Shown: positions 53,308 through 64,000, counted from the stretch's first letter. The stretch is DNA of 64,000 nt from an uncultured Spirochaetaceae bacterium (GCA_964390045.1 CAYMGP010000009.1:183-64182), one strand, 5' to 3'. A program made the numbers and translations. Notes: generated by a model not told the origin, from the letters alone.

Positions 53308-54615
53308 TTATTTTGAAACGCCCGGTCCGGTTGGACCCTGCCCGGAAGGCCTCAGATAAGCGCTCCAGTAGCTCATGCCTACGAATACGGCACCGCCGAT
53401 AATGTTGCCTATGGTGACGGGGAGCAGGTTCCTCCAGAGGAAGCTAATCCAGCTCAGAGATCCGGCCGTGAAAGCGCCCGGTGCGGCAACCCCTCCCCAG
53501 GCTCTTAGAAAAAGGCCCGTGGGAATGAAGTACATGTTGGCCACGGAGTGTTCGAAGCCGAGGGCTACGAAACCCATGATCGGAAAGAAAATGGCGAAGA
53601 TCTTGCCGATTGTCTGGCGGGCGGCCAAAGCCATCCATACAGCAAGACAAACAAGCCAGTTACAGCCCACTCCCCGCAGCAGGGCTTGGATGAAGCTCAG
53701 GTTCACCTTGCCGTAGGCTATCTTCACAGCCGCCGCCCCCAGCGCGCCGTCGCTGAGCTTCCAAAGGCCGGAGAAAACGAACAGCAGAGCGATCAGGATC
53801 GAGCCTATTAAGTTCGCCACGTACACCAGGCCCCAGCGCTCCAGCATCCTGCCGAAGGTGATCTCACGTGCTATGGCGCTGGAAATCATCAGATTGTTGC
53901 CCGTAAAAAGCTCGGCACCGGCTATGATGACAAGCATCAGGCCGAGGCTGAACACCGAGCCTGTCATGAACTTCGTGAAGCCTACCCCGAGATGGGAAGC
54001 CATGTCGAAGGAAACGGTTGTGGCCAGCATGCCGCCGAAACCGATGTAAGCTCCCGCCAGGATACCGAGAACAAGCACTGACAGCCAGGGAGAGGTCGTT
54101 TTGCCCACTCCTACTTTCTGGGCCACGGTCTCGGCGATTGTCTTGGGCGATTTGTCCTCGATGCTGGGCACGGGGAAGGTGAGGGAACGCACGATCTTTT
54201 CCACCTCCACGGCCCCTTTTGCTTTCTGATGCTCTTTGCGCTTGATCGCTTTCTGCACGGCGATGAGGATCTCCTCCGGAGTGAAGGGCTTGGCAACGTA
54301 GTCAACGGCGCCGCGCTTCAGGGCCTCCGTGGCTCTTTCCACCGCAGGATATCCGGTTATCATCACGATCGCCGAATCCGGGCAGCGTTTATCGATCATC
54401 TCCACGGCGTCGATTCCGTTGAGCTCGGGCATGCGCCAGTCGCAGAGAATCACATCGAACCGTGTCTCGGAGGCCAGCTCTAGACCTTTGCGGGCGCTGT
54501 CTGTGGTCACCACCTGGTAGCCTTCGCTGCCGAAAATGCGCTGGCATGATTCCAGAACAATGTCCTCATCATCTATGACCAGCATGTTGCGGATATTTTT
54601 CTCCGTATCACTCAT
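53308..54615 (-). CDS. Response-regulator receiver fused to a formate/nitrite (FNT) channel
   Basis: REC: IDDE, CDWRMP, ITGY, AKPF. FNT: AGAYIG, ELFTGN, CNWLVCLA, FEHSVANM, GNIIGG. Confidence 0.9.
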   Translation of the reverse strand: MSDTEKNIRNMLVIDDEDIVLESCQRIFGSEGYQVVTTDSARKGLELASETRFDVILCDWRMPELNGIDAVEMIDKRCPDSAIVMITGYPAVERATEALKRGAVDYVAKPFTPEEILIAVQKAIKRKEHQKAKGAVEVEKIVRSLTFPVPSIEDKSPKTIAETVAQKVGVGKTTSPWLSVLVLGILAGAYIGFGGMLATTVSFDMASHLGVGFTKFMTGSVFSLGLMLVIIAGAELFTGNNLMISSAIAREITFGRMLERWGLVYVANLIGSILIALLFVFSGLWKLSDGALGAAAVKIAYGKVNLSFIQALLRGVGCNWLVCLAVWMALAARQTIGKIFAIFFPIMGFVALGFEHSVANMYFIPTGLFLRAWGGVAAPGAFTAGSLSWISFLWRNLLPVTIGNIIGGAVFVGMSYWSAYLRPSGQGPTGPGVSK

Positions 54616-54640
54616 ATCAACAGTCCTCGTTTTATGGTTT

Positions 54641-55267
54641 TTACCAGATCTCGGCGCTGAGCCGGCTTTCCAGCCAGCGCTTCTGTTCAGGAGTCAGGGC
54701 ACCGATCTGGTTTTCTATCCAATGGATATCGCCTGTAAGGATCGCCAGTTTTTCAGGGCCTGTAAGATCGTAATCCTGGAGGGCATCGGCCCCGTAGTAG
54801 AACAGGCTGGCTACGAACTGGCTGTCCACGGCTGCTCTTTCCAGCACCCGGATCACCTCGTCCTTGTGGATCAGCTCCTGCTTTTCCGGCTCTTCCTTGG
54901 CTGCTTTTTCCAGGGCTTTCCTGACGCTTGTCACCAGCATGTCCGGGGTGAAAGGTTTTTCTACGTAGTCCGCCGCCCCAAGCTTCATCGCCTGGACCGC
55001 GCTCTGCACGGTGGCGTAGCCTGTGAAGATCACAATGGGCACAGCCGGCTTGGAGCGCTTGATATCCCGTAGTATCCGCATTCCGCCGATTTCAGGCATG
55101 CGGATATCTGTCAGAACCAGATCGTATTGCCGGTTCATGGCCCAGTCCAGTCCCTCGCGGCTGGAGATGGCCGTATCGATATCGAAGTTCTCGGCTGTAA
55201 GAATTTTTTTGACGCTGTCCAGCACAATCTGTTCATCGTCGATTACAAGAACTTTTTTTCTCTCCAT
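54641..55267 (-). CDS. Receiver domain plus a ~75-aa C-terminal helical domain of unknown function
   Basis: IDDE, TDIRMP, FTGY and EKPF motifs; no HTH recognisable. Confidence 0.85.
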   Translation of the reverse strand: MERKKVLVIDDEQIVLDSVKKILTAENFDIDTAISSREGLDWAMNRQYDLVLTDIRMPEIGGMRILRDIKRSKPAVPIVIFTGYATVQSAVQAMKLGAADYVEKPFTPDMLVTSVRKALEKAAKEEPEKQELIHKDEVIRVLERAAVDSQFVASLFYYGADALQDYDLTGPEKLAILTGDIHWIENQIGALTPEQKRWLESRLSAEIW

Positions 55268-55288
55268 ACCATACCTGCTCTTTTTCTT

Positions 55289-55654
55289 TTATCTGCTTTG
55301 CTCGAGGGCTCTGTCCACTGCATCTATCAGCTCATCCGGTGTGAACGGCTTGGCTATGAAATGGGTGGCGCCCATGCGCATCCCGCTAGATATCGTCTCC
55401 GGAGTAGGGTAGCCGCTCATTACTAGAATGGGTAGATCAGGCCGTCGCTCTTTTACGTTTGCTATGAGATACATGCCATCATACTCAGGCATAATCACAT
55501 CGACAAGTAGTAGATTGAAATTTTCCGCCTCCAGGGCTTGAAGCGCTGTCTTTGCTGTCGAGGTGATGGTTGCCGCGTACCCCTCGGCTTCAAGGATACG
55601 TCTACAGCTCGACAGTACCACCGGGTCATCGTCGACCACGAGGATCTTCTTCAA
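55289..55654 (-). CDS. Stand-alone response regulator receiver
   Basis: VDDD, VDVIMP, MSGY and AKPF motifs; TTG start overlaps the kinase stop codon. Confidence 0.9.
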   Translation of the reverse strand: MKKILVVDDDPVVLSSCRRILEAEGYAATITSTAKTALQALEAENFNLLLVDVIMPEYDGMYLIANVKERRPDLPILVMSGYPTPETISSGMRMGATHFIAKPFTPDELIDAVDRALEQSR

Positions 55655-57588
55655 TATTCGTCCTCCAGAGGCAGCCAGATCGTGAAGATGCTTCCCTTGC
55701 CCTCGGTACTCTGTACTCGAATCGCCCCGTGGTGGCGCTCGACGATTCCCTGGGATACCGACAGCCCCAGACCTGTTCCCGCCCCCACCTCTTTTGTGGT
55801 GAAGAACGGATCGAAGAGCTTGTCCAGATGCTCGGCGGGAATACCGCAGCCTGTGTCGGAAATCTCGATCTCTATTCCCTTGCTCTCCTCGGGTCCGGCC
55901 GAGTAGACCAGGCGGGAGTAGATGTTTATATGCCCGCCCTTGTCCGTTGCATCGATCGAGTTGAGTATGATATTGAGCAGCACACTCTGAAACCGACCGC
56001 GGTCGAGGGTGCGCATGGGGATGTCTTTCCCCGCATCGAAGCAGAAGATCACGCCTTTTACCAGTGCCTGGTTCTCGACCAGAGGAATCGTCTTTTCGAT
56101 CAGGTCGTTGATATCCGTAGGCTCCGGCTCGATCTTGGTCTGCCGGGAGAAATCCAGCAGGCCTTTGACGATTCGCCGCACCCTTTCGGTGGCATCGGCG
56201 ATCGTCTGCAGGTCCTGGCGTATTTCCTCGCTCAGGTCCTCCCGGCGCAGAAGCATGTGGGTGAAGGTGAGCACCCCCGTCAATGGGTTGTTGATCTCGT
56301 GGGCTACACCGGCCGCCAGCCTGCCCACGGAGGCCTGCTTTTCCGACTGCAGCAGTTTGAGCTCGCTCTCCGCCCGCTGAGAACGGTCCCGCTCACGCAG
56401 AGAGGAAAGCATCTCCTGAAATGTCTTCTGAAGCACGCCGATCTCGGCGGTTGATATCGGGCCGATTTCAGGAGACAGATCACCTGCCGATACGCGGCGG
56501 CTGACGTCGATCAGCCTGTGCACGGGCTCGAGAATCCTTTGCCCTAGGATGTAGCCGAGCACGACGGCCAGCACCATGCCGGCTGCCGTGATCAGAATAA
56601 AAACGAGCAGCGTGCTGCGCCGGATATTAACGTACTTGGCCTCGAGCACACCTACGTAGAGGATACCCACCCGCTTATCGTAAATATCGACGATGGGCTC
56701 ATAAGCCGTTATATACCAGTCATTGACGACGAAGGCCCTGTCGGTCCAGCGCTCACCCTCGCCCAGCACCTTGTTCCTCACCTCTTCGGACACCCGGGTT
56801 CCGATTGCCCGCTCGCCGCGAGCCGTCATGACGTTGGTGGAGACGCGCAGATCGTTGAAGAAGATCGTGGCTGTGCCGATGTTCTGTCCACGGTACTCCT
56901 CTTCCCTGAATACAGTTTCCCGTACCCTGTCCACGATTTGCTCGCTCCTGTTCAACAGCACTCCCCCGTACAGGACTCCTATCAAAGTGTTGCCCTCGAA
57001 CAGCGGCACGGCGCAGGAGATCGTCATTCCCGAGGTCTCCTCTGTTTCCGCACGGGGAGCCGCCCGGGGTGTGGGAACGATCTCGATCCGGGCCCTCTCG
57101 GCCAGGGCTCCATCCTCCGCGGCCAGGGTTTCCCTTTCCAGAATCACGGTACCTGAAACTGTGTTTTTCCTATCGAGGCAGAGCAGGGCCGCGGGATTGC
57201 CGGCGGCAGCCGGCAGATCGCCTCCGGCGGCCGGCAGGCCTAGGCGTACCCTGGTTATACCGCCGGCATCTACATAACCGGCGAAATCCATATGCAGCTT
57301 TCCGGCGAGCAGCCGCAGCCTGTCGGCCATATATTCCGAGTTTCCGAGTTTGGCCGCCTGGAGACATCCCTGCTCCTGACAGGCTATCTGCAGAGCTAAA
57401 CGCAGCCGGGTCTCCACATCGTTGTAGATCTCCCTGGCGGCGTTCAGGTCAAGGCGAATACGATTTGTCGCTTCATTGAGCACGGTTCTATTGATCAGCC
57501 CGACGCCGACAATGAGAGAGAGGCCGCCCACCAGGATGCAAACGCCGAGGAAGCTCGATATCAACCGAAAACGGGTCGTGTAGATCAC
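55651..57588 (-). CDS. Cache-HAMP sensor histidine kinase (NtrB-like HisKA)
   Basis: TM-periplasmic-TM, ATIF..RVSTNV..RAIGT Cache segment, AHEINNPL, N box, DTGCG, FDPFFTTK and GTGLGL motifs. Confidence 0.92.
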   Translation of the reverse strand: MIYTTRFRLISSFLGVCILVGGLSLIVGVGLINRTVLNEATNRIRLDLNAAREIYNDVETRLRLALQIACQEQGCLQAAKLGNSEYMADRLRLLAGKLHMDFAGYVDAGGITRVRLGLPAAGGDLPAAAGNPAALLCLDRKNTVSGTVILERETLAAEDGALAERARIEIVPTPRAAPRAETEETSGMTISCAVPLFEGNTLIGVLYGGVLLNRSEQIVDRVRETVFREEEYRGQNIGTATIFFNDLRVSTNVMTARGERAIGTRVSEEVRNKVLGEGERWTDRAFVVNDWYITAYEPIVDIYDKRVGILYVGVLEAKYVNIRRSTLLVFILITAAGMVLAVVLGYILGQRILEPVHRLIDVSRRVSAGDLSPEIGPISTAEIGVLQKTFQEMLSSLRERDRSQRAESELKLLQSEKQASVGRLAAGVAHEINNPLTGVLTFTHMLLRREDLSEEIRQDLQTIADATERVRRIVKGLLDFSRQTKIEPEPTDINDLIEKTIPLVENQALVKGVIFCFDAGKDIPMRTLDRGRFQSVLLNIILNSIDATDKGGHINIYSRLVYSAGPEESKGIEIEISDTGCGIPAEHLDKLFDPFFTTKEVGAGTGLGLSVSQGIVERHHGAIRVQSTEGKGSIFTIWLPLEDEY

Positions 57589-57741
57589 AATCTGGCGATA
57601 CGATAGATCGGATGGTTTTGCCCTGTCAAGGAGAGCCGGAGCCAAGTGAATCGGAGCCGAGGTTTGTTCCTGGTGGCCGATCCACCTTTCAAGATGGTAC
57701 ATTATCAAGTATGCAATCCGGTTGCGGGAGTGGAGTAGTAT

Positions 57742-58371
57742 TTGAACGCAAAGTATCCTGATCTGGCGGCTTTGATCCTTGCCGGCGGGCGCAACACGCG
57801 CATGGGAGGGATGGAAAAAAGTCGTATTGCAGTCAACGGGACTCCACTTGTACACAGCATCGCCTCGCTGCTTCAAGATTTATTTTCCGAAGTGATTTTG
57901 GTGACAAACAGACCGGATCTGCACAGGGATCTTGCCGGCCAGCTGATCATCAGCGAGGACATCTACAGGGAACGCGGACCTCTCGGGGGCATCCATACAG
58001 GATTGGCCCGCACGAGCAAAGAAGCCCTGTTCTGTGTGGCCTGCGACATGCCTTCGCTCGATCCTGAGCTCATCGAACGTGAGATCGAACATTTCTTGAG
58101 CCTTCCCCGGGAACAGTGCGATGCCCTGATACCACGCGTGGGCGAGTTGATCGAGCCCCTCCACGCCGTATACCGCCGGCGCCTGGAATCCCTGGCCCGG
58201 GAGATACTGCTCGGCGAAAGAGGGTATTCGGTGCGGGTACTGCTCGACAAGGCGCGGACCTGCTACCTGGATCTCCATGCGGCACCGGAGGTTGCCAGGG
58301 CGTTTTTCAATCTCAACACTCCGAAAGACATCCATTTGCACCTGGATGCCGGGAGGCAGGGAGGCAGCTGA
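57742..58371 (+). CDS. mobA: Molybdenum cofactor guanylyltransferase
   Basis: LAGG..RMG..K, GPLGGI, ACDMP, EPLHA.Y and N.NT motifs. Confidence 0.92.
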   Translation: MNAKYPDLAALILAGGRNTRMGGMEKSRIAVNGTPLVHSIASLLQDLFSEVILVTNRPDLHRDLAGQLIISEDIYRERGPLGGIHTGLARTSKEALFCVACDMPSLDPELIEREIEHFLSLPREQCDALIPRVGELIEPLHAVYRRRLESLAREILLGERGYSVRVLLDKARTCYLDLHAAPEVARAFFNLNTPKDIHLHLDAGRQGGS

Positions 58372-59240: not shown

Positions 59241-59999
59241 GTGAAAATCGCACTTACAGGAAAAGGGGGTGTGGGCAAGAGCACCCTCGCAGCAATGATT
59301 GCTCGGGTCGTTCGGGATCAGAGCAACAAAGTCGTGGTCATCGATGCCGATCCGGATATGAACCTGGCCACAATATTCGATGTTTCCCAGAACATCGAAA
59401 TCACTCCGATCGTAGAGATGAAGGAACTGATCGCCGAGCGTACCGGTACAAAGGTCGGCGAGCCGGCTCCGTTCTTCACTATGAATCCCAAGGTAAGCGA
59501 TCTGCCTGAGAAGTACTGGGTCGACAAAAACGGCGTCAAGCTGCTCGTCATGGGAACGGTACAGAGCGGCGGAGGCGGCTGCGCCTGCCCGGAGAATGCT
59601 TTTTTAAAGAGTCTTCTCGGCCATATGATGATTGCCCGTCAGGAGTGGGTTATTCTCGACATGGAGGCGGGTATCGAGCATCTCGGCCGTGGCACCGCCT
59701 TGGGTGTGGACTATATGCTGGTGGTCGTCGAGCCGAACAGGACCAGCACCGAAACGGCCCACCGCATTCAGAAGCTGGCCCATGATATAAACATCAAGAA
59801 GGTCCTGGTTGTGGGCAACAAGATCCAGAAACAGGAAGAAGAGGAGTTTATCCGCGAAGCCTGTCAAGGCCTTGAGGTGCTTGGATTTCTGCGGCTTTCC
59901 GAGCAGGTTCGACAGGTCAGCACCGGCGAGATTTCTCTGGAAGAAATTGGCGGGGATTTCCTCGAGCAGGTGAAAAAGCTGGTCGAGCGCCTGTCGTAA
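59241..59999 (+). CDS. cooC: CO dehydrogenase nickel-insertion ATPase
   Basis: GKGGVGKST, DADP, GCAC and DMEAGIEHLGRG motifs. Confidence 0.92.
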   Translation: MKIALTGKGGVGKSTLAAMIARVVRDQSNKVVVIDADPDMNLATIFDVSQNIEITPIVEMKELIAERTGTKVGEPAPFFTMNPKVSDLPEKYWVDKNGVKLLVMGTVQSGGGGCACPENAFLKSLLGHMMIARQEWVILDMEAGIEHLGRGTALGVDYMLVVVEPNRTSTETAHRIQKLAHDINIKKVLVVGNKIQKQEEEEFIREACQGLEVLGFLRLSEQVRQVSTGEISLEEIGGDFLEQVKKLVERLS

Positions 60000-60057: not shown

Positions 60058-60086
60058 TTGCAACAATGCTCGAGGCACTGTATAAT
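60058..60086 (+). promoter_or_regulatory. Near-consensus sigma70 promoter upstream of cooS
   Basis: TTGCAA-N17-TATAAT, preceded by an AT-rich UP-like tract. Confidence 0.7.
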
Positions 60087-60356: not shown

Positions 60357-62282
60357 ATGGCCAAAGAACTGAAGTATGCTGACAAAGCCTCGCAGCAGAT
60401 GTTCAAACGGGCGCAGGAGCAGCAGATCCCCACCGTCTGGGATCGTTATGAAGCGATGCAGCCGCAGTGCGGGTTCGGAACTCTCGGCCTGTGCTGCCGG
60501 AACTGCAGTATGGGTCCCTGCCGCATCGATCCTTTCGGAGATGGACCGAAGTTTGGAATCTGTGGGGCTGATGCCGATACCATTACAGCCAGAAATATCG
60601 TTCGGATGATCGCAGGAGGAGCGGCGGCTCATTCCGATCACGGGCGGGACATCGCTCACACCCTGTTTCTGATCTCGGAAGCTGAGGATTGCGACTACAA
60701 GGTCAAGGACGAGCGCAAGTTGAAGAGCATCGCCGAGCATTACGGGATCGAAACCAAGGGCAAGGATCTCAAAGAGATCACCCGAGCGGTAGCAGAGGCA
60801 ACATTGAACGAGTTCGGGCAGATGCACGGAACCGTGCGTATGGCCGATTACGCCCCCCCGGCCCGGGTGAAGCTTTGGAAGGAACTGGGCATCATGCCCC
60901 GGTCCATCGACAGGGAGATCGTGGAGATCATGCACCGTACCCATATCGGTGTGGATGCCGACTACAAGAACCTCATGAGGCAGGGCATGCGGGCGGCTAT
61001 CAGCGACGGCTGGGGCGGATCGATGATCGCGACCGAGCTTTCCGATGTCATCTTCGATACCCCGAAAATTCAGCCCTCCACCGCCAATCTCGGAGTGCTG
61101 AAGAAAGATATGGTCAACCTCGTCGTCCACGGCCACGAGCCGACACTTTCAGACATCATCGCCATTGTAAGCCAGCGCGAGGATCTCGTGAAAAGGGCCA
61201 AGGATAGGGGCGCCAAGGGCATCAATCTGGCCGGTGTTTGCTGCAGCGCCAACGAAATCCTGATGCGCCACGGGATCCCTCTGGCCGGCAGCTTCATGCA
61301 GCAGGAGCTGGCCGTTTTGACAGGGGTCGTGGAGCTGATGGTTGTGGATGTTCAGTGCCTGATGCCGGGAGTGGCGCACACGGCCCAGCATTTTCATACC
61401 AAGCTGGTGACCACCTCGCCCAAGGCCAGGATCCCCGGCTTCGATCACATCGAGTTCGAGGAAGAGAGAGCGGTGGAGATCGCCACCCAGATTATTGAAG
61501 CGGCGATCGACAACTATCCCAACAGAAACGACCTGAAGGCAGATATCCCCCAGGTCAACGAGGGAATCGTGGCCGGATTCACCACGGAGAGTGTCTTCCA
61601 GTTTCTCGGCGGTACCTACCGTTCGACCTACAGGCCCCTCAACGATGCGGTGATCGCCGGCAGGATCCGGGGAGCCGCCGGGGTGGTAGGCTGTTCCAAT
61701 CCCAACGTGGATTACGAGGAAGGCCACATCAGGATGGTAAAAGAGCTGCTCAAGAACGATGTTCTCGTTGTCACGACTGGGTGCAACGCCATCTCCTGTG
61801 CAAAGCACGGCCTGATGAAACCGGAGTCGGCCTTCCAGTTCGCCGGCGAGGGCTTGCAGGAGGTCTGCCGGGCCGTGGGCATACCCCCGGTTCTCCACCT
61901 CGGTTCCTGTGTCGACAACAGCCGGATCCTGAGGGTGCTGGCCAGTGTGGTGGCCGAAGGGGGATTGGGCGATGACATCTCCGATCTCCCCGTGGCCGGT
62001 GCGGCTCCCGAATGGATGAGCGAGAAGGCCGTTTCGATAGGTATGTACTTTGTGGCCTCCGGCGTGTATACAATGATCGGACACCCCCTGCCCATGATGG
62101 GCAGCAAGAACATGTACAATTACCTGACAGACGAGATAGAGAAGGAAGTGGGAGGCAAATGGGACTTCGAGCTCGATCCGGTGGTGGCGGCACACAAGAT
62201 GATCCACCACATCGACAAAAAGAGACAGGCATTGAAGCTCAAGCCCATGATGTACGAGCAGGCCTTGAAGCCTGCTGTGTGA
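60357..62282 (+). CDS. cooS: Ni,Fe carbon-monoxide dehydrogenase catalytic subunit
   Basis: QCGFG..GLCCRNCSMGPC (D/B clusters), HSDH, HGHEP, CCSANE, DVQC, GCSN, GCNA, GSCVDN and SEKA motifs. Confidence 0.97.
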   Translation: MAKELKYADKASQQMFKRAQEQQIPTVWDRYEAMQPQCGFGTLGLCCRNCSMGPCRIDPFGDGPKFGICGADADTITARNIVRMIAGGAAAHSDHGRDIAHTLFLISEAEDCDYKVKDERKLKSIAEHYGIETKGKDLKEITRAVAEATLNEFGQMHGTVRMADYAPPARVKLWKELGIMPRSIDREIVEIMHRTHIGVDADYKNLMRQGMRAAISDGWGGSMIATELSDVIFDTPKIQPSTANLGVLKKDMVNLVVHGHEPTLSDIIAIVSQREDLVKRAKDRGAKGINLAGVCCSANEILMRHGIPLAGSFMQQELAVLTGVVELMVVDVQCLMPGVAHTAQHFHTKLVTTSPKARIPGFDHIEFEEERAVEIATQIIEAAIDNYPNRNDLKADIPQVNEGIVAGFTTESVFQFLGGTYRSTYRPLNDAVIAGRIRGAAGVVGCSNPNVDYEEGHIRMVKELLKNDVLVVTTGCNAISCAKHGLMKPESAFQFAGEGLQEVCRAVGIPPVLHLGSCVDNSRILRVLASVVAEGGLGDDISDLPVAGAAPEWMSEKAVSIGMYFVASGVYTMIGHPLPMMGSKNMYNYLTDEIEKEVGGKWDFELDPVVAAHKMIHHIDKKRQALKLKPMMYEQALKPAV

Positions 62283-62291
62283 GAGGGTAGC

Positions 62292-62843
62292 ATGGCAAAA
62301 AGAATCACGGTAAGGATAGAGAGATGCATGGGCTGTCATACTTGCGAGCTGGCCTGTGCCATTGCTCATTCGCAGAGCAAGGACATCGAAAGCATGATGC
62401 TGAGCGGTGAAAAACCGGGATACAGGATCCACGTGGAATCCTACGGTCCACGTTCGATTCCCCTGAACTGTCAGCACTGCGAGGAGCCGGCCTGCGTGAT
62501 GGCCTGCCCCACAGGTGCGATACACAGAAAGGCGCCGGGGAAACCCGTGCTCTTCGACAAAGAGCGCTGCATAGGCTGCGGAATGTGCGTACAGGCCTGC
62601 CCCTTCGGGGTCATCACCATGAGCGCGGAGGGAAAGGGCGTGTTGAAGTGCGACCTCTGTATAGAGAGGCTGGCCCAGGGGTTGGAGCCGGCCTGCGTAT
62701 CCTCCTGCCCGACCCATGCTCTGGTCTTCGAAGATGACAGGCAATCGGCCCAGACCAAGCGAAAAGCAGTAGCCGAGAAAATGGCGACCGCCGTGGCAGC
62801 GGGCGAGGCCGCGGCAGCAGAGGCCGAAGCCGAGGAGGTGTAA
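62292..62843 (+). CDS. cooF: 4x[4Fe-4S] electron-transfer subunit
   Basis: Four CxxC..CP-type groups, KCDLC and CPT.AL motifs. Confidence 0.9.
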   Translation: MAKRITVRIERCMGCHTCELACAIAHSQSKDIESMMLSGEKPGYRIHVESYGPRSIPLNCQHCEEPACVMACPTGAIHRKAPGKPVLFDKERCIGCGMCVQACPFGVITMSAEGKGVLKCDLCIERLAQGLEPACVSSCPTHALVFEDDRQSAQTKRKAVAEKMATAVAAGEAAAAEAEAEEV

Positions 62844-62850
62844 CGATTCG

Positions 62851-63126
62851 ATGGTAACCGTGACCGTTTGCGTGGGTAGCTCATGCCACATCAAAGGCGC
62901 CCGGCAGGTCATCGTGCGCTTCAATGAGCTGCTCAAGAATCACGGTCTGGAAGAAAAAATAGAGCTGAAAGGATCGTTCTGCATGGAACGCTGCGGGGAA
63001 GGCCTTAACTGGCAGATAGACGAACAACCTGTCACCAGCAGCAGTGTTGAAGAGGCGATCGAGACGTTCACAGAGAAGGTGCTGCAGCCGCAGCTGAAGA
63101 CCGGCGGCGGCAGCAGCTCTGAGTAG
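62851..63126 (+). CDS. Thioredoxin-like [2Fe-2S] protein (HfsA-like)
   Basis: VCVGSSCHIKG...GSFCMERC motif. Confidence 0.85.
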   Translation: MVTVTVCVGSSCHIKGARQVIVRFNELLKNHGLEEKIELKGSFCMERCGEGLNWQIDEQPVTSSSVEEAIETFTEKVLQPQLKTGGGSSSE

Positions 63127-63136
63127 GAAGGAGCCG

Positions 63137-63688
63137 TTGGCAAAGGCAGATCAGGGCCGGGCGGAGCCGGATCCAGGCCCGGTGGACGGCAGGGAAACCT
63201 CACCGTATATTGCGGCCATCCTGCAGCATACTCCCAACGGAGTGCTGCTCGTGGACAGGGAGACCCGAATCCAGTTCGTGAATCCCTCGTTTCGGAGTAT
63301 GTTTCACTGCGCCGACGAGAAGCTGTTGGACGAACCGGCAGCCAAGTTTGTGCACTGCGACTGCTTCGAGAGGGCGATTGCAGCGGGGGGAAATCTCATG
63401 GTCAAGGAGAACATCCCCGACCATGATGTCAGCTTCCGGGTGGGGCTTTTCCCCATCGAGGGCGAAGACCTGTATTGCGGGATCTTCATCGATATCTCCG
63501 AGGAGGAACAGGCCAAGAAGGATTTGCGCGATCTCAGGGCGCAAACGCTGGAGAGGGCGCAGGAGGTCATCTCGCGGCAGATGAAGACCGCTCAAGAGAT
63601 AGCCCGCCTGCTGGGAGAAACCACGGCGGAGACCAAGATCCTGCTTGTGAAGCTCATGTCGCTCTTTGTCGAAGAAGAGACGAAATGA
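63137..63688 (+). CDS. PAS protein carrying the HydS/HfsB C-terminal helix but no hydrogenase domain
   Basis: TPNGVLLVD..I..VN PAS start; VISRQMKTAQEIARLLGETTAETK..L..L tail; AAGGAG before the TTG start. Confidence 0.8.
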   Translation: MAKADQGRAEPDPGPVDGRETSPYIAAILQHTPNGVLLVDRETRIQFVNPSFRSMFHCADEKLLDEPAAKFVHCDCFERAIAAGGNLMVKENIPDHDVSFRVGLFPIEGEDLYCGIFIDISEEEQAKKDLRDLRAQTLERAQEVISRQMKTAQEIARLLGETTAETKILLVKLMSLFVEEETK

Positions 63689-64000
63689 GGCTGTACTACG
63701 AGTGGGGCATCAAGCAGGTTCACAAGCACGGCGAGGAGCTCTGCGGCGACAACATCGCTTTCTCCCGCCAGGCTGACAAGGTTACCCTTGCTCTGTCGGA
63801 CGGCCTGGGAAGCGGGGTGAAGGCCAATATACTGGCCACCCTGACAACCCAGATCGCCATACGGATGCTCGAGGACAACCTGCCCCTTGGGGAGGTTGTG
63901 CAGACCCTGACCGAAACGCTCCCCGTGTGTGCGGTGCGCAAGGTTGCCTACAGCACCTTCGCGATAGCCCAGTTTTTCAGCCAGGGCTATGCGCGGGTCG
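63685..64000 (+). CDS. SpoIIE/PP2C-family Ser/Thr phosphatase (HfsC-like); truncated by the window end
   Basis: Not in the ORF track. Manual translation gives K.GEELCGD..LSDGLGSGVKANILATLT..TLPVC..R.VAYSTF. ATGA overlap with the PAS gene. Confidence 0.88.
   Translation, partial: MRLYYEWGIKQVHKHGEELCGDNIAFSRQADKVTLALSDGLGSGVKANILATLTTQIAIRMLEDNLPLGEVVQTLTETLPVCAVRKVAYSTFAIAQFFSQGYARV

Follow-up and report, generated by a model that had tools for sequence, protein, structure and literature searches.

A hydrogenase-less Hfs/HydS-type phosphatase cassette in a spirochaete CODH/ACS operon, a candidate redox-poise switch

Contig CAYMGP010000009.1 (C9) of an uncultured Spirochaetaceae bacterium (GCA_964390045.1) carries a carbon monoxide dehydrogenase/acetyl-CoA synthase (CODH/ACS) operon in which three signalling genes, for a small [2Fe-2S] protein, a stand-alone PAS protein and a SpoIIE/PP2C phosphatase, sit between cooF and a flavin module of the Bfu type. 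Homology indicates that this cassette descends from the HfsA/HydS/HfsC module, although neither the H-cluster domain of the parent hydrogenase nor its C-terminal [4Fe-4S] motif is left in it. We favour, with a probability of roughly 0.5, the reading that this is a phosphatase switch which responds to redox poise and takes its input from the CooF/Bfu electron chain; our comparisons suggest that what the unit reads is the electron pressure of a working enzyme, not hydrogen. The stretch analysed (the window) is 64,000 nucleotides long (C9:183-64182) and comes from a 3.8 Mb genome in 137 contigs (91% complete); the closest public loci are from metagenome-assembled genomes (MAGs) of Spirochaetaceae/Spirochaetales. 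All hosts in the analysis are uncultured, and the system is known here from genomes alone.

The operon lies on the plus strand. CooS/AcsA, the Ni-CODH catalytic subunit (60357..62282; 641 aa; Prismane, E = 1e-173; TIGR01702, 667 bits), has among its best solved relatives the CODH of the Clostridium autoethanogenum CODH/ACS (6ytt, E = 5e-197), and is followed by a CooF-like poly-[4Fe-4S] electron-transfer protein (62292..62843; 183 aa; Fer4_11, E = 1e-22). The cassette opens with an HfsA-like, thioredoxin-like [2Fe-2S] protein (62851..63126; 91 aa; PF01257, E = 1.6e-4, under the Pfam cut-off). The PAS protein (63137..63688; 183 aa; Pfam PAS_8/PAS) carries the HydS tail motif in its C-terminal helix and starts at a TTG codon 4 nt downstream of a GGAAGGAG Shine-Dalgarno sequence; the phosphatase, 383 aa in full, runs from 63685..64000 on to C9:65018, its final 836 nt lying outside the window. 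Read directly, the spacings are 9 nt (cooS-cooF), 7 nt (cooF-[2Fe-2S]) and 10 nt ([2Fe-2S]-PAS), with an ATGA overlap between the PAS and SpoIIE genes, which confirms the order and gaps given by an earlier, sequence-only reading of the window. That reading had also described a PAS protein of 183 aa ending in RQM..AQEIA.LLGETTAETK and devoid of an H-cluster domain; the tail is present, and Pfam returned PAS families only.

To place the cassette, we scanned one genome per species for relatives of the PAS protein, which gave 483, and kept the best 80 loci; with 12 loci fetched later the final count is 92, comprising 62 of HydS type and 30 with a short PAS gene. Open reading frames (ORFs) of the relatives came from a longest-ORF scan and were labelled by blastp (E < 1e-5) using as queries the proteins of this operon and the hydABC proteins of contig C55 of the same genome, including the H-cluster region of HydA; absences in short or cut contigs mean little in these counts. 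The majority of the 80 loci, chiefly from Clostridia, combine a small 2Fe-2S gene, a gene for an H-cluster-like plus PAS protein of ~570 aa and a SpoIIE gene, which is the hfsABC/HydS pattern, often followed by an HfsD-like hydrogenase gene or adjoining hydABC. In mapped loci, the SpoIIE and 2Fe-2S genes flank the HydS gene directly. Among the 62 HydS-type loci we found SpoIIE in 61, NuoF in 21, catalytic HydA in 19 and CooS or AcsB in none; the 2Fe-2S gene accompanies the PAS/HydS gene in 80 of the 92 loci (29/30 short-PAS, 51/62 HydS). Two loci (L011 and L012) have a domain homologous to the small 2Fe-2S protein fused onto the HydA C-terminus, a Rosetta-stone hint, and six further loci have a second copy of the 2Fe-2S gene immediately after hydA.

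The short PAS proteins and the C-termini of the ~570-aa HydS proteins share the tail QM.vAQEIA.LLGETTAETKI.L.KL. Across 80 short and HydS sequences, 51 of them HydS C-termini, 15 columns are invariant, 11 within I155-K167; the invariant residues include M149, I155, A156, L158-K167 and L170. In HydS, a four-cysteine motif (ELNCGxCGYxxCxxKAxA...C; CxxCx4C...C) precedes the PAS domain, and the short forms begin past it. Of the features of a group C HydS/HfsB protein, the PAS protein has the PAS domain and the tail helix and lacks both the H-cluster (Fe_hyd_lg_C) and the 4-Cys [4Fe-4S] motif; of those of an Hfs/HydS-type cassette, the locus has the Cys4 [2Fe-2S] gene directly upstream and a coupled SpoIIE/PP2C gene with intact aspartates and the C-terminal domain. 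The alignment to HydS, the shared tail and the conserved residues bear out the earlier proposal that the triad is homologous to an HfsA/HydS(HfsB)/HfsC-type module minus its H-cluster domain. Judged from these alignments, what the family conserves is a core of three parts, namely the [2Fe-2S] protein, a PAS domain joined to the invariant helix, and the PP2C phosphatase; the H-cluster domain is dispensable. As the sequence-only reading had stated, HfsB/HydS is in print as a PAS hydrogenase and HfsC as a serine phosphatase (PMC5707799, PMC11837493); HfsA, which that reading took as a known [2Fe-2S] protein, is not so called in the portions of those papers available to us.

The CODH setting recurs. 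In eight of the 80 loci (seven from Spirochaetota MAGs, one from a Kiritimatiellae MAG) a short PAS gene stands where it does here (70-90% identity). Of 401 evenly sampled Spirochaetota genomes, 25 matched the PAS protein (E <= 1e-10), 13 with the short form and 12 with the HydS form (565-611 aa); the 13 are the genome studied here and 12 of the 17 members of a family from another class. All 12 short-form loci fetched from that family read cooC-cooS-cooF-2Fe2S-PAS-SpoIIE-nuoE-nuoF-FeS-acsB. Altogether, the 20 short-PAS loci of Spirochaetota (two classes) and Kiritimatiellae all keep the order with nothing interposed, as far as their contigs reach (within these limits, cooF in 19, cooS in 17, SpoIIE in 19, nuoE in 19 and acsB in 13), and no H-cluster ORF was found in the fetched flanks of any of them. 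The synteny with cooS-cooF, whose recurrence elsewhere the sequence-only reading had left to be searched for, does recur in this clade (20/20 related loci), more often than chance would explain.

A protein search at near length returned 958 short relatives, which among the matches listed (120) are 76-99% identical. Pairwise dN/dS for the three cassette genes was 0.04-0.18, including unsaturated pairs (for example L004 versus L006, dS 0.56), indicating strong purifying selection on all three. That the short PAS gene is a contig-edge artefact or, as the sequence-only reading had allowed, a one-off deletion remnant can be rejected for the CODH clade on its recurrence and dN/dS; a genuine contig-edge artefact of this kind is found in one row of the set (L036), on a 1.9-kb contig. 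The synteny, the many short relatives and the low dN/dS argue that the arrangement is maintained and functional.

The contig extends 5.3 kb past the window, where the sequence-only reading had cautioned that a hydS partner or hydrogenase might lie. Over these 5.3 kb, to the contig end, there is no hydS or hydrogenase gene; instead, four further plus-strand genes follow. A nuoE-like gene (BfuC; C9:65015-65500; 161 aa) overlaps the phosphatase stop, and a nuoF-like gene (BfuB; C9:65493-67376; 627 aa) encodes a NuoF core with an N-terminal 2Fe-2S domain and a C-terminal 2x[4Fe-4S] extension. Next comes FeS278 (BfuA-like; C9:67390-68226; 278 aa), a 2Fe-2S/4Fe-4S protein corresponding to the FeS-binding N-terminus of HydA/HoxU/NuoG without the catalytic domain, and, 23 nt after it, acsB (C9:68250-69356, reaching the contig end; CODH_A_N and CdhC domains). 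From the phosphatase through acsB all junctions are overlaps or gaps of at most 23 nt. The NuoF protein matches the HydB, NiFe-HydB, NfnB and Stn bifurcating-subunit structures over its full length (E from 1e-237 to 1e-196), and FeS278 matches the N-terminus of a group A6 [FeFe] hydrogenase and HoxU. The domain hallmarks of BfuABC are all found, namely both FeS extensions of BfuB, a NuoE-like BfuC and the 2Fe-2S plus 4Fe-4S module of BfuA; by domain content the three genes are a Bfu-type flavin module, and electron bifurcation is predicted for the complex.

Because Bfu-type genes and then acsB lie downstream, with no hydrogenase, the locus is a CODH/ACS operon. CooS (TIGR01702) and AcsB are encoded here, and the corrinoid and accessory genes are seen in relatives, the contig studied stopping inside acsB; L115, for example, has genes for a CdhD-family corrinoid protein subunit and RACo downstream of acsB, and acsC is present in relatives. 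Gene context thus makes the cooS of this locus the predicted CODH subunit of a CODH/ACS operon and not a stand-alone CO oxidiser. In the rest of this 91%-complete genome, a PAS query found no second copy of the PAS gene, and H-cluster genes (PF02906) occur on contig C55 only, in a hydABC cluster of the usual kind that comes with kinase-type regulators of its own. This hydA-hydB-hydC cluster (C55:14521-23596) has an extended HydB of 1032 aa; upstream of it are a 185-aa histidine-kinase-like ATPase, a PHP-domain protein and a 527-aa RsbW-like kinase with a weak H-cluster-like match, which look like a different regulatory set for a genuine hydrogenase.

Operons with and without the cassette form a natural pair. 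AcsB is present in 61 of the 401 sampled Spirochaetota genomes, and 12 further acs loci were fetched. Three layouts were seen in Spirochaetota: acsB directly after cooS (7 of the 12 fetched loci, L171-L177, with an acsB frame of ~1170 aa in some); cooS-cooF-bfuCBA-acsB; and the latter with the cassette (L110-L121). The two complete cassette-less loci of the second kind (L166, L167) read cooC-cooS-cooF-nuoE-nuoF-FeS-acsB, and in both nuoE comes straight after cooF, all three cassette genes being absent. L169 and L170, both partial, resemble them, and a further partial locus (L168), cut at nuoE, has Bfu genes of the cassette type. The second and third layouts coexist in one family of genomes. 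The cassette is thus one unit, and an optional add-on between cooF and the Bfu module. As the [2Fe-2S] gene is absent from cassette-less operons, we assign its product to the switch, not the Bfu enzyme.

The comparison also indicates which part of the operon the cassette goes with. Between the cassette-less operons and this one, CooS and AcsB share 74-82% identity, whereas CooF, NuoE, NuoF and the FeS protein share 37-56%; the cassette is thus linked to the electron-transfer block. A quick NuoF tree places cassette-bearing and cassette-less operons as sister groups within one clade (SH-aLRT 100) that stands apart from the hydrogenase subunit HydB. It follows that gain or loss of the cassette took place in an operon that already read cooS-cooF-bfu-acsB. 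The CODH-linked Bfu is therefore not a recently decapitated hydrogenase, and its derivation from a HydS-adjacent HydABC by loss of the H domain was rejected on the same ground.

A second hydrogenase-less clade occurs without CODH. In a quick tree of PAS tail plus phosphatase (73 rows, with long-branch and composition warnings and with the L036 artefact among its short rows), the short forms fall into two clades, each with SH-aLRT 100: the CODH-linked one, and one from Ignavibacteria, Chloroflexota and Cyanobacteria. Both nest in a larger clade with HydS forms of Peptococcaceae, Desulfotomaculaceae, Dethiobacter and Ignavibacteriales, and a single loss of the H domain is possible for the two. 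In an Oscillatoriales genome the cassette lies between hoxH and hydrogenase maturation genes, in a hoxE-hoxF-hcp-hoxU-hoxY-hoxH operon; in two Chloroflexota loci it immediately follows hydC-hydB-hydA; and in an Ignavibacteria locus it adjoins a VIT-family gene and an iron alcohol dehydrogenase gene. The hcp assignment in the Oscillatoriales operon (L021, 4762-6411, between hoxF and hoxU) is to a hybrid-cluster-protein-like gene, by its N-terminal Cys pattern only. The hox and hydABC cassettes share with the present one the three genes, the invariant tail, the missing H-cluster and a position directly after the catalytic gene of a NuoEF-linked enzyme. They differ in having a SLWELLWDYDPNGL-type PAS N-terminal region without C76 and C114, in forming a separate clade and in having an [NiFe] or [FeFe] hydrogenase as partner where CODH/ACS stands here. 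Their occurrence without CODH points to an electron-transfer enzyme, not CODH as such, as the partner of the cassette.

In the small protein of the cassette, C7, C12, C44 and C48 are invariant (n=54), and we infer that this Cys4 protein binds a [2Fe-2S] cluster. The model of the PAS protein (pLDDT 85) has a PAS fold at residues 23-119 and a single helix of 62 residues at 121-182, with short-LOV, YF1 and FixL proteins as fold neighbours. Its C58, C76 and C114 are invariant in 121/121 CODH-clade proteins and in two outliers of ~70% identity; C76 and C114, placed at the start of an F-alpha-like helix and on the last beta-strand, are confined to the CODH clade, being found in neither the other short clade nor HydS PAS domains. 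Together with H73 and H96, these cysteines could be a clade-specific cofactor, metal or thiol site. In the phosphatase, the PP2C aspartates D22, D39, D154, D209 and D210 and 32 more columns are invariant over the full length (n=69). Its model (pLDDT 90) has a PP2C half closest to SpoIIE-, RsbX- and RsbU-type folds by Foldseek, a search that this half dominates when the full model is used. The C-terminal 159 aa (residues 225-383; C9:64539-65015) form a conserved alpha/beta domain with the motifs GKKVVCGGTTA, DVPP and NPAHQNPDLP; Pfam gave only noise for it at E up to 10, and a protein atlas holds stand-alone look-alikes of ~150 aa in unnamed 'hypothetical protein' clusters. Co-folding of the SpoIIE, [2Fe-2S] and PAS proteins (from alignments, with PAS as partner) scored 0.02 (mark 0.32), a value that weighs neither way on binding.

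From these data we infer a route of three steps, covering the contacts between the proteins, the direction of signalling and the target. The small [2Fe-2S] protein would equilibrate with CooF, with the FeS chain of BfuA/B/C, or with both, and so report how reduced they are; the CooF and BfuABC chain presumably connects CODH/ACS to NADH and ferredoxin. The [2Fe-2S] protein would then act on the PAS protein, whose long helix with AQEIAxLLGETTAETK would control the PP2C phosphatase. This in turn would dephosphorylate a Ser/Thr target encoded outside the operon, and the dephosphorylation may bring one of three things into line with the poise of ferredoxin/NADH: CO2 reduction, the synthesis of acetyl-CoA, or a regulator of the partner-switching kind. 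The acs operon, the adjacent Bfu genes, the CODH-free hox and hydABC cassettes and the cassette-less sister operons are what favour sensing of electron pressure in the CooF/Bfu chain. A bolder version, which we hold only tentatively, makes the CODH-CooF-Bfu chain of the Wood-Ljungdahl pathway an in-trans receptor that would load the [2Fe-2S] reporter, perhaps together with the three-cysteine site of the PAS domain, while the PAS helix and PP2C would set Ser/Thr phosphorylation in the acetyl-CoA pathway. If true, CODH/ACS would be under post-translational control by electron pressure (or CO), and 'H2-sensing' HydS proteins would be a special case of a general enzyme-coupled redox sensor.

Several observations weigh against the redox-poise switch. 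Redox state of an FeS cluster as the signal is not established even in the parent HydS family, and the three clade-wide cysteines might let the PAS domain sense by itself. NuoF is absent within 10 kb in 41 of the 62 HydS-type loci, so that the module does not in general need a Bfu partner. No kinase, STAS or other obvious substrate gene was found in or beside the operon. The genome has three SpoIIE-family genes and, elsewhere than here, three STAS matches and 14 HATPase_c_2 matches (seven above the curated cut-off); the STAS and HATPase_c_2 matches, like the C55 kinase with its H-cluster-like match, are unlinked to the locus, and with all candidates distant no target can be assigned to the phosphatase.

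The closest alternative to the redox-poise switch is a CO sensor, in which CODH turnover with CO would reduce CooF and then the [2Fe-2S] protein, the phosphatase reporting CO as a fourth CO-responsive regulator beside CooA, RcoM and CorQR. The cassette follows cooF after 7 nt in a translationally packed run, cooS-cooF precede it in all loci with sufficient contig, and the cassette of the other clade also stands directly after a catalytic gene (hoxH or hydA), as would fit an enzyme that replaces the H domain in trans. However, in an acs operon CO is an intermediate within the pathway and no signal from outside, sister operons have the same cooS-cooF but no cassette, and the cassette co-varies with CooF/Bfu, not with CooS. 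These points weaken CO sensing, which we regard as unlikely. Of the CO- or ferredoxin-responsive switch put forward by the sequence-only reading, the part that the data favour is sensing of electron pressure in the CooF/Bfu chain; nothing in the sequence favours specificity for CO.

It is more doubtful still that the PAS domain is the sensor, of CO, redox or a metabolite, through a cofactor, a metal or a thiol switch at C58, C76 and C114 (with H73 and H96), and that the [2Fe-2S] protein is an accessory. The three cysteines are invariant, two of them in the CODH clade only, and the nearest folds are cofactor-binding PAS proteins (LOV, FixL). The start of the F-alpha-like helix and the last beta-strand, where C76 and C114 lie, line the ligand pocket in many PAS domains. 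Yet invariance weighs little among 121 sequences that are 76-99% identical, and we saw no LOV or haem-PAS signature, though no test was aimed at one. The [2Fe-2S] gene, moreover, always accompanies those for PAS and PP2C and does not occur in operons that lack the cassette, which argues that it is part of the switch. Least probable, to our mind, is a cassette with no functional tie to CODH/Bfu, a general partner-switching input of the RsbP/RsbU kind for, say, a sigma factor or a fermentation enzyme. Such a role would suit a PP2C fold nearest to SpoIIE, RsbX and RsbU-type partner-switching phosphatases, the STAS and RsbW-like genes elsewhere in the genome, the Ignavibacteria cassette beside an iron alcohol dehydrogenase with no hydrogenase or CODH, and the altered adhE expression described for hfs deletions in the accessible part of that work (PMC5707799). 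Against it, the position between cooF and nuoE is kept in 20/20 loci of two Spirochaetota classes and a Kiritimatiellae MAG, and both hydrogenase-less clades, as well as a third of the HydS loci, lie in or next to redox operons of the NuoEF type.

Upstream of cooS, the first gene of the cluster encodes a cooC-like Ni-insertion ATPase (59241..59999, plus strand; 252-aa ORF; CbiA/ParA-type P-loop); a cooC homologue also lies ahead of cooS in 14 of the 20 related loci and in L166 and L167, the two complete loci without the cassette. The cooC-cooS gap of 357 nt contains the best sigma-70-like promoter match (60058..60086, plus strand; L002 241-269; TTGCAA-17-TATAAT, 10/12), a consensus match only. 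A scan of the cluster found no plus-strand terminator-like site of any strength breaking up the nine-gene run, and no HTH, LytTR or CRP-type domain was found among the nine operon proteins. An RNA-labelled run (X20) yielded only short contigs with exact or near-exact matches, over cooS and the end of nuoF, for which DNA carry-over is possible; it gave no contig on the cassette and none spanning a gene junction by at least 31 nt.

On the minus strand of the window, at 53308-57876, is encoded a 435-aa protein that joins an N-terminal response-regulator receiver to a formate/nitrite transporter (FNT) domain and may be a phosphorylation-gated formate channel. Two receiver proteins that stand alone, and a kinase of sCache-HAMP-HisKA-HATPase architecture, are encoded transcriptionally upstream of it on the same strand. 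The whole set is oriented divergently from mobA-fdhD-cooC-acs, and it also stands beside the operon in the closest relative (L006) and not in the other family.

New here is a distinct, well-conserved hydrogenase-less clade in a CODH/ACS setting, with a natural pair of operons with and without the cassette. Variants reduced by nature to the [2Fe-2S] protein, PAS helix and PP2C define a minimal signalling core, one that is plugged into three redox enzymes (CODH/ACS-Bfu, Hox and HydABC), and they suggest that the principle conserved is the supply of electrons by a partner enzyme and not the binding of H2. The question of how sensory [FeFe]-hydrogenases signal, and of what they control, thereby becomes testable, acs operons with and without the cassette being a natural control. 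The locus is also a spirochaete example of CODH-Bfu inside an acs operon and bears on the supply of low-potential electrons for CO2 reduction in acetogenic or acetate-oxidising sediment bacteria. All of this is drawn from the genomes of uncultured organisms, marine-sediment spirochaetes among them.

The parent hfs/HydS-phosphatase system is known genetically and spectroscopically, and the parts of the literature available to us leave its signalling mechanism open (PMC5707799, PMC13104023); as far as its accessible text goes, a 2026 study argues against a C-terminal cluster reporting H2 in a sensory [FeFe]-hydrogenase (PMC13104023). In the literature we found no description of a hydrogenase-less cassette, with CODH or with hox, although supplementary neighbour tables may list the genes, and the main text of Bohm & Land 2026 (PMC13056359) mentions neither a PAS domain nor a phosphatase. 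For the enzyme itself, the sections of Schut et al. 2022 at hand propose an uncharacterised Codh-Bfu class of four sequences, from Firmicutes only, with CODH genes between bfuB and bfuA (PMC9304861). The present operon shares with that class, as described there, CODH/CooF genes co-operonic with a NuoE-like BfuC, a BfuB with both FeS extensions and a truncated BfuA (PMC9304861). It differs in its hosts (Spirochaetota and Kiritimatiellae), in the order cooS-cooF-(cassette)-bfuCBA, in its place directly before acsB in an acs operon, and in the signalling cassette. NuoEFG-like COGs have been reported in the neighbourhoods of Ni-CODHs in a Wood-Ljungdahl pathway context, and what we could access of that report shows no cassette (Inoue 2019, PMC6344411).

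Among regulators, the likeness to CooA, RcoM and CorQR, which are encoded beside cooS and thought to couple CO metabolism to regulation, is a functional analogy only; in place of a DNA-binding domain, which none of its proteins has, the cassette has a protein phosphatase as output. In Bacillus subtilis, RsbP is an energy-stress sensor of PAS-coiled coil-PP2C architecture. With RsbP, RsbU and SpoIIE the cassette shares the PP2C fold and, as modelled, the logic of a PAS domain and long helix ahead of PP2C, but its PAS and PP2C parts are separate polypeptides, and it has an extra conserved C-terminal domain of 159 aa, an FeS protein and no nearby STAS or kinase gene. The nearest known systems are hfsABCD of Thermoanaerobacterium and HydS-PP2C of Ruminococcus albus and Thermotoga maritima, which have the same Cys4 [2Fe-2S] gene, PAS domain with the AQEIAxLLGETTAETK helix, and coupled SpoIIE/PP2C with the same C-terminal domain. 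In contrast to these, the spirochaete cassette has no N-terminal FeS domain, H-cluster, 4-Cys [4Fe-4S] motif or adjacent HfsD/HydA2, and it is built into a CODH/ACS-Bfu operon.

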